Sequence record: PP925842.1
Direction: 5' to 3' (one strand)
From: Escherichia phage KookSpook
DNA length: 64,000 nt
Below the pieces are notes generated by a model. The model worked only from the letters and a program-made list of their open reading frames with translations, had not been told where the DNA came from and did no database searches. Every line of letters begins with the position of its first letter. The first letter of the stretch is position 1. Of this stretch, positions 5,184 to 11,273 are shown piece after piece. The position numbers and the translations under genes were made by a program.

Positions 5184-5914
5184 ATCGTCGATTCCTTATA
5201 TAATAGATAAGTTTACCGCCGATAGGCTTTAAGATATACCCAATTTTTAAAGAGCGCGGCGGTAAACTTCCCCGCCGTTGTAGTCCGTTGCCGTCCTACG
5301 AGATAAATAATAGCAAATACTGAAAATGGCGCAACCTTATTTTTGTAAAGAAACGTAAAGACAAGATCCCCCGCACCACGTCCGGCGATTGCCTAAGTTT
5401 AAAAGAAACGGGCGCGCGAATACCACAAAGTATAGCAGATAGGCAAGTAATTTTTTCATTTATATTTGCTTTGCCCTACTTGACAAAATCTAAAAAGCTC
5501 ATGACAGCGATAAACGAGGGTAGGCAATGCAATGGCATGGCTAAAACTTTCATCGCGTTCTAGGGCGTTTTAGACGTGTTCTAGCCCTGTTGATAACTTA
5601 TCCCCAAAAGCAAAAATGAAATTTTCCTAGTTATCCACTTGACTTTTATTTTCCAGTGGATAACTACTTATTTTATAAAATTAATTAATTGACTTTTACT
5701 TATTAGTATGTATCAGAAAGATAGCAGGCTAATAATCGCTAGAAGGATAATCATGCTGGTGGATTGTAACAGCCTAAATTATTAGCAGACTATTAATCAC
5801 GGAAAATCTCATTAGCCAACTAACTATTTCATAATATATAATATACATATAAATTAATGAGAAATAATAACTATAAGAAATCATCTAGCTAAGTGAGAAA
5901 CACTATCATTTAAG

Positions 5915-5923
5915 TTATCCACA
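5915..5923. promoter_or_regulatory. DnaA box (TTATCCACA, perfect consensus)
   Basis: exact 9-mer; additional near-consensus boxes at 5589-5597, 5633-5641, 5655-5663 (inverted pair). Confidence 0.5.
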
Positions 5924-6005
5924 ATGTTATTAACAGCACAAAATAACTTGACACAATAGGAAGCGATATAAGGACTTTTGCACAGAGTTATACACAGGTT
6001 ATTCC

Positions 6006-6025
6006 ACTGTATAAGTATACAGGGT
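6006..6025. promoter_or_regulatory. LexA (SOS) box-like palindrome CTGT-N8-ACAG
   Basis: cactgtataagtatacaggg matches CTGT-AT-rich 8-mer-ACAG. Confidence 0.45.
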
Positions 6026-6161
6026 AGAAAGGCAGTGTTAACAACTGCAATCAATTTTAAGCGGTCTAAATCGCTCCCTAACGAGATAAACGCTATAAGG
6101 TAATATTAAAAGTAAAGCCTCCTAGCGTCGCCCTGGTGGCTTCGCCGTGATTTGCCCTTTA

Positions 6162-6189
6162 TTGCACCGCTGCGCGGTTAGCATAAAAA
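6162..6189 (+). promoter_or_regulatory. candidate sigma70 promoter for rightward pre-early operon
   Basis: TTGCAC -16 nt- TAAAAA about 100 nt upstream of ATG 6289. Confidence 0.3.
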
Positions 6190-6288
6190 TAGACGTTAGG
6201 CAAGAAAAATAAAAAGGTAAAATAATCTTTGCCTATCCTAGAAAATTACCTTTATCATTCACTCACCAATTAACGAGGAGGCCAACAA

Positions 6289-7299
6289 ATGAGGCTGTAT
6301 AAACCTGATAATGCCACCGTTTTAAAAGGTGCATTGCGCAACCTGCTAGACGGCAGCAGAACAAGTAGCATTAAACATTTTATTAACAAGGTTGAAACTA
6401 TTCATCAAAACTTTTTTGATAATTATGATGCTTATGATATGAATAGTTTTTTGCCGTTATATAAGCAAGGGGCAACTCTTATTTTATATAACCGTGATTG
6501 TCATATCTTTACAGGCAGGGGAGCTGGGCCGGATACCGATTTTATTATTGCGCAGGGTAATAATATTGTTGCGTATCATAGCAATTCAGGACGTCAATCA
6601 TTTAGTGTAAATGATTTTGAACTTGTCGGACTTGATTTAATAAACGGACTTTCTAGCATTGAGGGATTTTTAGATGTTATCTGGAAGTATTTAACCACTG
6701 GATGGTATAGGCCGGATAATGACGGATCTCAATATACCGCTGCAATGGCTTTTGATGGCGATGGTAATTTTTTGTTACCCTCGGAATTATACCCGTATGT
6801 ATATAATGAACTGATAAGGGAAGCTGGTTTTATTTTCTGGAAAGATGAAAATCAGCTTATTGACAATATAGAAAACCAAGCTGTAAGCTCTAATACTCAA
6901 AGCGTTAACACTCAAACTACTAAAAACAAAGGAAAAAACACCATGACTAAGATCGCTAATATTGTTGCCGCTAATAAATCCGCTGTTGTAAACGCTGCAA
7001 AACTGGAAGCGGGTAAAATTGCATTGACTCAGATCACAAAAGTAGCGGCTAAAAAAGCGCCGTTTATGATTAAAGGTTATATCGACACTCCTATCGGTCG
7101 AGTAGTGATCGCCAACCTGTTAAGCGTAGCGGTTGACCAGTACGCCCCGACTAACCAGAAAGCGAAAGCGGTAGCAGGCGCGGCAATGGAAGCGGCTATG
7201 TTAGAAATGGTACAATCTTTTAACATTGCCGAAATGATTGATGAAATGGTAAAAGGTATCGATATTTCTACTTTTACCACTAACACCGAAAGCGAGTAA
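6289..7299 (+). CDS. hypothetical protein
   Basis: 336-aa ORF, GAGGAGG SD, C-terminal Ala/Lys-rich helical region. Confidence 0.6.
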   Translation: MRLYKPDNATVLKGALRNLLDGSRTSSIKHFINKVETIHQNFFDNYDAYDMNSFLPLYKQGATLILYNRDCHIFTGRGAGPDTDFIIAQGNNIVAYHSNSGRQSFSVNDFELVGLDLINGLSSIEGFLDVIWKYLTTGWYRPDNDGSQYTAAMAFDGDGNFLLPSELYPYVYNELIREAGFIFWKDENQLIDNIENQAVSSNTQSVNTQTTKNKGKNTMTKIANIVAANKSAVVNAAKLEAGKIALTQITKVAAKKAPFMIKGYIDTPIGRVVIANLLSVAVDQYAPTNQKAKAVAGAAMEAAMLEMVQSFNIAEMIDEMVKGIDISTFTTNTESE

Positions 7300-7364
7300 T
7301 AATAACTAGCGGGGATTGTTTCCCCGCTTTACTATTCCCTTGTTAATTAATAGGAGACTAATAA

Positions 7365-7859
7365 ATGTCTGATGAAAAATATGGCTTTTCTCTAGTGGAA
7401 GTGAGCAAGGCTAAACACGATATGATCGTTTTAGTTGATTGCCATACTGGCTATTGCGGGGAAGGTTGGACGGAAGAATGTTTTATTCCTGCTGGGGAAG
7501 ATTTGGACGCTTTCGCCCAGGAGCGGGCGTATGATAATGCTTCCCGCTTTGGTAGCGATGGTTATGAAGATGAGGAAACGGGCGACTGGTACGAAAATGA
7601 AAACGTATATGCAAGCCTTTATCATTATCAGTTAAGTAAATCCGGTTATTATGTTAATGGCGGTGATCCTATTAATTCCGTCATGAAATTAATTATTAAA
7701 TATGGCGGCGTCGAGATAGTTGATAACAAAGCGATATTATACGCAAATCGATTAAAACAGTTAGTTTACATCCCTGATAGTACCCGATGGGATGAATACA
7801 CTATTTTGCACGAAGAATTAAAACGATGTTTCAATATTGAAGCCTTACAGGTAGTCTAA
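7365..7859 (+). CDS. hypothetical acidic protein
   Basis: 164-aa ORF followed by intrinsic terminator. Confidence 0.6.
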   Translation: MSDEKYGFSLVEVSKAKHDMIVLVDCHTGYCGEGWTEECFIPAGEDLDAFAQERAYDNASRFGSDGYEDEETGDWYENENVYASLYHYQLSKSGYYVNGGDPINSVMKLIIKYGGVEIVDNKAILYANRLKQLVYIPDSTRWDEYTILHEELKRCFNIEALQVV

Positions 7860-7872
7860 TGTAAAGTTTTGT

Positions 7873-9284: not shown

Positions 9285-9430
9285 CTATCCGCATAATATT
9301 GAAACAGCGTTTAGGAAGGTAGCGCAATGAAACTATATATTTTCGTCGGCAATGTTAAGCCTGCTAATGATCCCGACGGTGGCGATAACGTTCGCCACTA
9401 TTGGCAAAAATATATTTACTAGGGGTTATT

Positions 9431-9625
9431 ATGAGTGATGTAATTGTTGTAACCAAAACTACTACGACGGTAGACGTTTTTTATGTACCCGATACGCCAG
9501 AAAACAGGGAAGCGGTCGAGCGTGGCGAATATGATAAAGTGATTTATGATAACGATGGGTATTATCAACATTTGGTAGACTCCTACGGGGAAGAGGAGAA
9601 GATCACGCATCGACTACCAGACTAA
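9431..9625 (+). CDS. hypothetical acidic protein
   Basis: ORF 9401-9625 in track; ATG at 9431 preferred. Confidence 0.4.
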   Translation: MSDVIVVTKTTTTVDVFYVPDTPENREAVERGEYDKVIYDNDGYYQHLVDSYGEEEKITHRLPD

Positions 9626-9630
9626 TAATC

Positions 9631-9656
9631 GACGGGGAGCTAATCCCCGTTTTTCG
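9631..9656 (+). terminator. rho-independent terminator (end of rightward pre-early operon)
   Basis: acgggga-gctaa-tccccgt followed by TTTTC. Confidence 0.55.
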
Positions 9657-9766
9657 TACCTGCAACAAAATACCCCCTTGTTTTAGTACCCCCACCAAAA
9701 TTAAACGTCTTAGAATGCGTTTTAGGGCGTTTTAGAGCTATATTAGAGTTATTCACTACATAGGAA

Positions 9767-9786
9767 TACTGTATAAATATACAGTA
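9767..9786. promoter_or_regulatory. LexA (SOS) box-like perfect palindrome
   Basis: tactgtataaatatacagta = CTGT-N8-ACAG, perfectly symmetric. Confidence 0.5.
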
Positions 9787-9904
9787 GGATAACCTGTTAA
9801 TAAGTCTGTTGATAACGCCTCAAAATGGCTAGGATTCTGTCAAGTCAAATCGTGCTGTTAATAAACCTGTAGATAACTTAACTAGCAGTGTTTCTCACTT
9901 CCAT

Positions 9905-10040
9905 TCTTGAATGCAAATCATTCTCACTCGCATTTCACTATCTAAATGAGAATCATTCCACTTCCTAAATAATTCTTGTTCCATTCAGTAAATGTGAATC
10001 ATTATCATTTGCATTTCACTTCTTAAATGAGATTGATTCT
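9905..10040. repeat. iteron-like imperfect tandem repeats
   Basis: gcatttcact at 9931 and 10011; taaatgWgaWtSatt at 9943, 9989, 10023. Confidence 0.5.
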
Positions 10041-10087
10041 TATTATCATTCGTATTTCGGCAAGCAGGGCAAATTGCCCTGCGCTTT

Positions 10088-10825
10088 TGTGCAAATCCGA
10101 CATTTGCCCCAATGGATTACGTGCGGGCGTGTATGTGCGAATCCGACAATTTTTGGTGGTGTGCAAATCCGACCCGAAAAATTTTTATAGTGTGCGAATC
10201 CGACAATGAATTTTCCTAAAAACTCCAGCAATCACGAACTGCGTTCGAATCCTGTGGAATTTACTAGAGTATGTGCAAATCCGACATGTGTTAAGGTGTG
10301 CGAATCCGATGAAGTTTTTGTGAGTTCGATGAGAGGGTGTGTGATTGTATGAGTTTAGGTGAAAGAAGTTGGAGTGAAGAAATTCGAGGGAAAAACTGGA
10401 AGGTGCAGCGGTGTTGGTGCCTCAGCACCGGTTTGCTGCGTTTTTGGGGAAGAGTTGAGATAATTTGCGGAAATTTGAGATTAGTCGAGATAAAGTAAAA
10501 TTTTATTAGCTAAAGGGGGCAAAATAGCTTGACAAGTGAAAATTCTTGTGGCTCTAAAAACTCAGGCAAACATGGGCCTTCGGCCCGAAATAATGCTGCT
10601 ATTTTCAGGAAAGTAAAAGTTCCTAAAAACTTAGGCGTTTGTGCAAATCCGACCGATATTTCCTAGAAACACAATGTGCAAATCCGACAATAAAATCCAG
10701 AAATGTGTCTTCAAAAAATGTTTTCTAGAAATAACCGCCCTCCCTATAACCGCCCTATCTAGAAAAACCGGCCTAAGGCATGTAATATGAGAAGAAAACT
10801 GCCCTATAATGTGTGCAAATCCGAT
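10088..10825. repeat. dispersed direct-repeat array, 9 copies of GTGCRAATCCGAY plus TTCCTAGAAAC motifs
   Basis: copies near 10088, 10133, 10159, 10190, 10271, 10296, 10639, 10674, 10811; no ORF. Confidence 0.7.
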
Positions 10826-11273
10826 GAATATTTTAGTGTGATCTCTAGAGTTTGTGCTTATCAATTTCCTAGAAACTTAGGAGTCTAGAAGAAAGTGTTG
10901 TGCCATCCTAGCAGATGAGCGGCAACAGGTGTATCATCTTGAACACAGATATTGCCTTTAAATATAATTTTGTCTTTTAAATAAATATAGTATCCCCAAG
11001 GGATCTCATATAGAGCTTTGCCCCCGCCAGAAGGTCTCGTGGTGTTTCTAGTAATCTTTATTAAATTACCTATTGACTTGTCCTGTCGCTCCGTATCCTA
11101 CGCTACAAGTCAGTAATTTAAGATTCCTGAACCACCACACCTTCTGTGTGGCAACTCTAAATGGTTAATTCTATTAACTCATAGAGTTATGATAACATAC
11201 ATTTATGTATGTGTCAACGAGAGTTTGTATTTCTGTCTCGGCACTAGTGTTTAGCACCGAGACATGCAGGCTC

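Follow-up and report, generated by a model that had tools for sequence, protein, structure and literature searches.

The rightward pre-early operon of Escherichia phage KookSpook (PP925842.1) is bracketed by two palindromes that score as operators for LexA, the SOS repressor of the host, and each of them lies beside paired DnaA-type boxes. We focus here on positions 5184-10900, which hold this operon and its flanks; all coordinates are those of the 64,000-nt stretch analysed, and "the window" means the full 64 kb. Both flanks share their anatomy with annotated elements of phage T5 and are homologous to them, the LexA scores are operator-grade, and the boxes are conserved Demerecviridae-wide. 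The LexA part of the region is strongly supported by sequence and conservation. Input from host DnaA and LexA had been proposed in a first-pass annotation of this DNA and finds support in sequence statistics and conservation, the layout and the DnaA part having already been published for T5. The overall account is more speculative: we give a somewhat better than even chance to LexA and DnaA loading on the first-step-transfer (FST) DNA, gating leftward pre-early transcription and marking the site at which DNA transfer pauses.

Two candidate LexA operators

The right palindrome, TACTGTATAAATATACAGTA at 9767-9786, matches TACTG(TA)5CAGTA at 19 of 20 positions and is equivalent to palindrome D of T5, where the identical sequence lies at 9330-9349. 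Its score of 25.8 bits exceeds that of every operator in our matrix, which was symmetrised and built from 27 E. coli operators (13.0-24.2 bits, median 19.3). The left palindrome, CACTGTATAAGTATACAGGG at 6005-6024, scores 18.6 bits, about that of a median operator, and is conserved in 29 unique T5-like left modules. The matrix scoring proposed by the first-pass annotation thus places both sites in the range of known operators. Five of the 27 operators (those of recA, sulA and umuDC and the two of lexA) were verified in MG1655, where they score 19.3-23.1 bits, and when the matrix was run over four MG1655 stretches of 2.5-3 kb, the known operators were the sole sites at or above 12 bits.

Chance is a poor source for such sites, the expectation per shuffled 64-kb window being 0.034 for sites that score 18 bits or more and 0.002 for those that score 22 bits or more. 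Beyond the left and right boxes, no site in the 64 kb reaches 16 bits; weaker LexA-like sites are AACTGTGATTTAATCCAGTT at 42937-42956 (15.9 bits) and CTGTATAAATAGACAG at 47997-48012. The bare CTGT-N8-ACAG core occurs at 6007-6022 and 9769-9784 and at two unrelated sites in the window, with 0.72 expected by chance. Both palindromes have the dyad, the AT-rich centre and the score of known operators, and LexA binding in vitro is very probable. They share CTGT-N8-ACAG and an AT-rich centre with the SOS boxes of E. coli (recA, lexA, sulA, umuDC and others) and score equally or higher; they differ in being on a strictly virulent phage and beside DnaA-box arrays, and in that the left one alone overlaps a predicted promoter. 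Mobile elements regulated by the SOS repressor of their host likewise use it as their own regulator. In those elements, however, it governs lysogeny and lysis, whereas there is no lysogeny here and the proposed trigger is the destruction of host DNA by the phage itself.

Published descriptions of T5 treat CTGT-N8-ACAG as a palindrome or as part of inverted repeat D (IRD) and do not mention LexA. The words "LexA" and "SOS" have no occurrence in the preprint in which Davison compared these elements (bioRxiv 10.1101/866236). Searchable full text, queried for T5, Demerecviridae, Tequintavirus and the 20-mer, yielded no link between LexA and T5-like phages, an earlier mention in the older T5 literature being possible. 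The LexA reading of T5-type palindromes therefore appears to be previously unreported.

Conservation of the LexA-type boxes in relatives

Absence of the palindromes from related phages had been named beforehand as what would speak against host input, and the reverse was found. At least one box lies in the same region of 37 T5-like loci and of seven more distant Demerecviridae, most of which have two or three, while two Vibrio phages have an intact box and a degraded one. All 37 T5-like loci covering the region carry one box per module, of 23.5-25.8 bits on the right and 16.5-22.2 bits on the left, and almost nothing else. Two or three boxes of 18-26 bits each are present in Klebsiella IME260, Pectobacterium My1, Pantoea AAS21, Proteus PL1, Vibrio pVp-1 and 70E34-3, where they bracket the operon next to A2 and where A1 is only 32-73% identical to that of the window. 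Exact TTATCCACA boxes, which are of DnaA type, lie within ~100 nt of a LexA box in AAS21, PL1, pVp-1, 70E34-3 and JSF12. In Vibrio JSF12, the box proximal to the injection stop signal (iss) is alone intact, at 22.9 bits.

The boxes are conserved beyond their neighbouring DNA, with the A2-proximal boxes of JSF12 and Hades as exceptions. Between distant groups, the operon-side flank cannot be aligned, and what is retained is the box together with the adjoining GGATAAcc-TGTxGATAA-gtc-TGTxGATAA run. Across lineages, CTGT is invariant or nearly so and its partner is ACAG or CCAG, with variation in the centre and the outer flanks, a pattern that is thus as expected for LexA operators. At least 120 other viral contigs, mostly of 30-50 kb, contain the exact 20-mer of the right box as well, which fits a general LexA operator better than a site for a T5-specific protein. 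Metagenomic relatives of A1 (36-47% identity) have neither A2 nor boxes. Covariation with host-specific LexA motifs was considered in alphaproteobacterial phages that encode A1 (Rhizobium RHph_Y1_20 and Dinoroseobacter R5C) and proved inapplicable there, A1 lying in replication or structural modules without a comparable region.

The palindromes consist of 9-nt arms around a 2-nt centre (9776-9777 and 6014-6015), which is AA or TT in nearly all of ~58 T5-like boxes and AG in the left box of the window; AT or TA, which would complete a perfect consensus palindrome, occurs in none of them. Left and right centres flip independently among the T5-like loci (L001-L040). This pattern suggests either inversion of the centre by template switching or selection against a perfect palindrome.

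The modules and their DnaA-type boxes

The region belongs, by homology, to a T5-type phage, as the first-pass annotation had assumed. Megablast with 5184-10900 matched 530 phage records, nearly all of them T5-like (Tequintavirus, Epseptimavirus and relatives), with ~87% identity in the best full-length matches. The closest database record, MG065692.1 (95.6% identity, 99.3% in A1), is labelled "Campylobacter phage C13", an improbable host for a T5-like phage, and some matching records are labelled "Listeria phage". The window begins at the dmp stop codon, followed by A1, A2, 007 and hdi, all on the minus strand, and it thus starts in the left terminal repeat, which is the FST DNA. Judged by homology to BF23 and T5, whose repeat ends are annotated, the terminal repeat stops at ~10555; the window does not contain the right repeat. 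The last ~350 nt of 5184-10900 accordingly fall in unique DNA. By its sequence, the region has the known structure of an FST control region, typical of T5-type phages; its left flank corresponds to T5 Repeat Regions 1 and 2 and its right flank to Repeat Region 3, the iss.

The T5 record AY587007 annotates inverted repeats C, D, D' and C', direct repeats B, C and D (the last in nine copies), palindromes C-J and the 7.9% nick, and RefSeq places the T5 injection stop signal at 9140-10149. Davison compared 25 phages and described an arrangement of inverted repeat C (IRC), spacer and IRD, mirrored as IRD'-spacer-IRC', with a constant spacer and eight DnaA boxes paired 3 bp apart, and proposed that membrane-bound DnaA arrests T5 DNA; by the same account, pausing two-step transfer has been demonstrated for T5 and BF23 only, and the T5 replication origins lie near the middle of the genome (bioRxiv 10.1101/866236). 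Papers of 2023 and 2026 list the repeats, palindromes and DnaA boxes alone and call their role untested.

KookSpook shares with T5 Repeat Regions 1-3 and the iss the order of elements at 85-91% identity, the spacer length, eight DnaA-type boxes paired 3 bp apart, nine copies of direct repeat D (DRD) and an identical palindrome D; in contrast to the T5 iss, its right module has no consensus DnaA box. The left arm, equivalent to IRC-spacer-IRD, lies at 5891-6022 (+) and is 84.6% identical to T5 AY587007 6022-6156, which is annotated as IRC and IRD. The right arm at 9769-9900 (+), equivalent to IRD'-spacer-IRC', is 90.7% identical, without gaps, to T5 9324-9463. The two form a 132-nt inverted repeat with arms that are 74% complementary. 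The motifs reported by the first-pass annotation are all present within 1-2 nt of where it had placed them, and none is a chance match; its perfect TTATCCACA at 5915-5923, its inverted 9-mer pair and its repeat array are all borne out. The same set of elements does occur on both flanks, as it had claimed, but in opposite orientation, and consensus DnaA boxes are confined to the left module (5915, 5976 and 5988, three within 82 bp).

We counted as DnaA-type any 9-mer within one mismatch of TTATNCACA and as consensus those matching TTWTNCACA. DnaA-type 9-mers reach 26-28 per kb in 5880-6030 and 9760-9900, compared with 1.5 per kb in the whole window (~18-fold), and include four same-strand pairs with 3-bp gaps (5915/5927, 5976/5988, 9795/9807 and 9856/9868). 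The IRC pair at 5915-5935 (+) consists of TTATCCACA and TTATTAACA, with the 3-bp gap that Davison describes, and the IRD pair at 5976-5996 (+) of TTTTGCACA and TTATACACA, also 3 bp apart and both matching TTWTNCACA. The right module holds the variant pairs TTATTAACA/TTATCAACA at 9795-9815 (-) and TTATTAACA/TTATCTACA at 9856-9876 (-), again 3 bp apart, in copies 1 and 2 of direct repeat B. Further upstream, a convergent pair at 5588-5606 combines TTATCAACA (-) and TTATCCCCA (+), each one mismatch from TTATNCACA; the inverted pair TTATCCACT (5631) and AGTGGATAA (5655) spans 5631-5663 in Repeat Region 1, and TGTTGATAA occurs at 5588 and at 9807. Each module is built in the same way, with a LexA-type operator at the operon-proximal end, a TTATCC core that overlaps or abuts it and then two DnaA-type 9-mer pairs, 12 bp start-to-start; on the left, it is the TTATTCCAC core following the IRD pair that overlaps the LexA box. 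Because of this core in both modules, LexA and DnaA occupancy would interact.

The TTWTNCACA 9-mers are clustered and phased as in a DnaA-box cluster, those of the right module being one-mismatch variants. At oriC, DnaA-box arrays combine 9-mers of high and of low affinity, with a phasing of about one helical turn. The modules share with such arrays same-orientation 9-mers spaced 11-12 bp start-to-start and a mixture of consensus and variant boxes; they differ in showing no sign of an unwinding element or of replication from the modules.

The only repeat that is direct between the flanks, the others being inverted, is a CTAG-containing GCGTT(C/T)TAG element, present as GCGTTCTAGGGCGTTTTAG at 5555-5573 (+, an exact match) and again at 9717-9735 (+). 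Its 19-mer GCGTTYTAGGGCGTTTTAG has these two copies alone in 64 kb, both on the plus strand, and shuffles give an expectation of 0. A related "gcgttttag/cttagaatcgc" element precedes the LexA boxes of Vibrio and Proteus relatives. To the right of the right module lie a 49-nt repeat in two copies 81 nt apart (9910-10039, +), which a repeat search and the T5 features identify with the direct repeat E (DRE)/direct repeat C region, and a GC-rich hairpin at 10064-10082 (+), homologous to T5 9650-9666 and equivalent to palindrome J at the 7.9% nick (9661-9668 in T5), which approximates the end of first-step transfer; the right module lies ~300 bp inside this pause point. Nine dispersed copies of TGTGCRAATCCGA, the equivalent of T5 DRD, follow at 10088-10824 (+), with 0.11 expected, and the end of the terminal repeat falls between copies 6 and 7; T5 likewise has nine copies split 6 + 3. 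The inverted repeat pair, the DnaA box pairs and the DRE, DRD and nick hairpin together point to membership in the T5-type IRC-IRD injection-stop module.

Predicted promoters around the LexA-type boxes

The left box overlaps a predicted leftward sigma-70 promoter, TTAACA-16-TATACT at 6014-6041 (-), which has 10 of 12 consensus matches and its -10 element inside the box; TTAACA-16-TATATT or TATACT is found in 20 of the 29 unique T5-like left modules, that of the window included. The rightward operon is preceded by a promoter-like site, TTGCCT-18-TATCAT at 6229-6258 (+), nearly identical to the one that NC_005859 annotates as a promoter in front of T5.011; a 2026 preprint describes this T5 promoter as characterised by experiment (bioRxiv 10.64898/2026.04.02.716235).

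PL1, pVp-1, 70E34-3, JSF12 and Hades have the A2-proximal box after a CTAG-rich repeat, 2-11 nt upstream of a -35-like hexamer (TTGACA, TTGACT or TTGGCA). The hexamer is followed by an extended -10 (TGnTAyxCx) and by a GC-rich stretch (...CGCGCGCCCGTT...), and these elements are all directed toward A2-A1. T5 has the same GC island with TGgTATTCG, and so does the window on its minus strand (5421-5404). As TATTCGCGCGCCCGTTTC preceded by TGg (extended -10-like), it was seen in the window at 5404-5421 (-), in T5 NC_005859 at ~5135 and in our loci L059 (~12561), L058 (~12100), L187 and L188, and it is kept from T5-likes to Vibrio and Proteus phages that otherwise share no DNA similarity. This island may provide the A2-A1 operon with its core promoter and GC-rich discriminator. 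Across lineages, the A2-side box thus appears to go with transcription toward A2-A1-dmp, and the iss-side box with a DnaA array and no promoter.

Alternative explanations

The palindromes and 9-mers could instead be sites for phage proteins, chiefly A2 (an essential, dimeric protein that binds DNA), with or without A1, their likeness to SOS and DnaA sites being coincidence or mimicry. We consider this unlikely, since 19-20 of 20 positions still match the LexA consensus in lineages where A1 and A2 are only 32-43% identical, since the same 20-mer is common in unrelated viral contigs, and since the 9-mers include exact TTATCCACA. A2, moreover, appears to lack a LexA-like winged helix; it has no sequence match in Pfam or the PDB, and Foldseek returned nothing below E = 0.001. 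Another alternative is the published model (Davison, bioRxiv 10.1101/866236), under which the modules would be membrane anchors bound by DnaA only, with the palindrome an incidental, structurally conserved part of the inverted repeat that has no LexA role. The ~18-fold enrichment and phasing of DnaA-type boxes fit this model, and the whole right module, beyond the palindrome, is highly conserved, with a mean column entropy of 0.20 bits compared with 0.14 for the box. We nevertheless judge it improbable that DnaA acts alone. PL1, pVp-1 and 70E34-3 have a second LexA box at the predicted A2 promoter, outside any IRC/IRD-type duplicate and with at most scattered DnaA boxes nearby; distant lineages keep the box and lose the operon-side flank, and accident would hardly produce a score that exceeds those of all known E. 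coli operators.

A further possibility is that the inverted repeats are mainly recombination substrates by which an accessory cassette is inverted or swapped, protein binding being secondary. The genes between the modules form a mosaic among T5-likes, the two central nucleotides of the palindrome switch between AA and TT without intermediates, and IME260 and My1 carry homologues of 011 and of the 164-aa protein on the A2 strand. In these two phages (L055 2303-6022 for IME260 and L056 7854-11824 for My1), the inner flanks "gcgttctagg..tatattagag" and "cgcttaaaat(c/t)ga" are on swapped sides, and these swapped flanks together with the change of strand indicate an inversion, with respect to T5 and the window, of the whole stretch between the boxes. 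Both cassette orientations thus exist between genera, but a single one is found among all 37 T5-like loci, the arms are only 74% complementary, there is no invertase gene, and no recombinase family was recognised among the ten open reading frames (ORFs) of the operon, A2, 007, hdi and the 65-aa ORF at 3625-3822. Recombination would also leave unexplained why the LexA and DnaA consensus is retained in lineages without a duplicated module. As the main function of the repeats it is, in our view, very improbable; the evidence supports a secondary role for them in cassette rearrangement.

A proposed role for LexA and DnaA

We thus favour the account in which host LexA dimers and DnaA would occupy both modules once the FST DNA has entered the host. 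At the left module, LexA would cover the -10 element of the predicted leftward promoter and hold back part of the transcription toward hdi-A2-A1-dmp; such restraint would be expected because the box covers the -10 here and, in the Vibrio and Proteus relatives, lies shortly before the -35-like hexamer of a predicted A2-A1 promoter. Destruction of the host chromosome, as carried out by A1, is the classical SOS-inducing signal, and the ensuing cleavage of LexA would therefore create a feed-forward switch. At the right module, on the other hand, a LexA/DnaA complex may serve as a mark or anchor for the end of the transferred DNA, which would extend the DnaA model of Davison; loss or remodelling of the complex may accompany the second transfer step.

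Several observations weigh against this account. The right module, where anchoring is proposed, has four one-mismatch DnaA variants and no consensus box, and neither a scan nor inspection by eye found a promoter overlapping its LexA box. The left box is the weaker of the two, with CAAG as one half in some T5-likes (16.5 bits). The leftward promoter that it overlaps is a consensus match and is absent from T5 itself, IME260 and My1. The A2-proximal box is degraded in JSF12 and Hades, where one half reads CATGT, Hades scoring 14.9 bits and JSF12 falling below the 14-bit cut-off. The T5 hegG-017 block can be deleted to give a viable mutant with smaller plaques (bioRxiv 10.64898/2026.04.02.716235), and this deletion, if contiguous, would remove the left module as well. 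Finally, proteins that bind the DNA inside the cell should help it to enter rather than halt it.

A stronger form of the proposal is that LexA and DnaA are the missing host factor of two-step injection in T5, their complex at the right module holding the first-transferred DNA at the pause, such that LexA cleavage, brought about by A1 through RecA, boosts A2-A1, releases the block and times the second transfer. We regard this form as rather unlikely. Both genes are awkward for knockout screens, dnaA being essential and the loss of lexA killing sulA+ cells, which could be why no host factor for T5 injection has been found so far.

Genes of the operon and neighbouring features

The operon consists of ten ORFs, not the eight first counted, and comprises orthologues of T5 011-017 and three accessory genes; the orthologues are not undescribed, as had been thought, having been partly characterised in T5 with respect to toxicity, deletion and nickase activity. 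T5 011, 013 and 015 are toxic in E. coli, and 015 is an Ung-dependent nickase (bioRxiv 10.64898/2026.04.02.716235; PMC8201957). All ten lie on the plus strand. The 336-aa T5.011 orthologue (6289-7299; DUF7566, Pfam PF24450 at E = 5e-113, phrog_4263) is followed by a 164-aa acidic ORF (7365-7859; isoelectric point 4.46, phrog_6741) that T5 lacks and that BF23, IME260 and My1 carry. Its AlphaFold2 model has a predicted local distance difference test (pLDDT) score of 87 and a predicted template modelling (pTM) score of 0.82, with no PDB fold match below E = 0.1. Being absent from T5, the protein fell outside the toxicity and deletion studies, and among the genes of the operon it remains the best candidate for a function yet to be characterised.

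Next come the 76-aa T5.012 orthologue (7967-8197; phrog_5145, found with tblastn) and the 49-aa hydrophobic T5.013 orthologue (8247-8396; phrog_5607), whose T5 counterpart has two transmembrane helices and is lytic when expressed (bioRxiv 10.64898/2026.04.02.716235). The 70-aa orthologue of RefSeq T5.014 (8400-8612) matches phrog_4227, labelled "endonuclease nicking abasic sites generated by Ung", and the 114-aa orthologue of locus tag T5.015 (8728-9072; phrog_4379) is 92-98% identical across T5-likes. The names conflict, RefSeq and PHROGs placing the nickase on the 70-aa T5.014 family and the papers on T5.015, which by locus tag is the 114-aa protein (PMC8201957). Between these two lies a 41-aa hydrophobic ORF (8609-8734), found in few relatives only and without a PHROG match.

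The 71-aa ORF at 9069-9284 is a rare accessory gene, without a PHROG match and found in 13 phage records only. It is bracketed by a 38-nt direct repeat of the gene junction, 95% identical (9035-9072 and 9293-9330), which looks like a cassette-insertion footprint; the repeat core TTGAAACAGCGTTT lies at 8625, 9039 and 9295 and, inverted, at 7821. The operon ends with a 31-aa ORF (9327-9422; phrog_22819), the 64-aa acidic T5.017 orthologue (9431-9625; phrog_6973) and a closing terminator hairpin (9632-9655, +), equivalent to T5 palindrome C, the homologous T5 hairpin being annotated as a rho-independent terminator. For the functions of the ten ORFs, Pfam returned one family of unknown function (on 011) and PHROGs gave unknown function except for the nickase label; across Pfam, PHROGs and PDB fold comparison, no family or fold pointed to an anti-defence role. 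Left of the operon, the T5.009 homologue (~5184-5290, minus strand) lacks a start codon and is frameshifted with respect to T5, and 009 is thus probably not a functional gene in this phage. An Rfam search of 4900-11300 found no RNA family near its gathering score.

Implications

For annotation, the region is otherwise ordinary T5-like FST DNA. T5 injection stops after 8% of the genome has entered and then restarts, and how it does so has been asked since the 1960s. Operator-grade LexA sites, present from coliphages to Vibrio phages, add a second well-understood host protein to the injection model. If the proposed role is true, they would offer one of the few examples in which a strictly virulent phage wires the SOS repressor of its host into its takeover programme, and the LexA sites provide a testable handle on how T5 pauses and restarts its injection.

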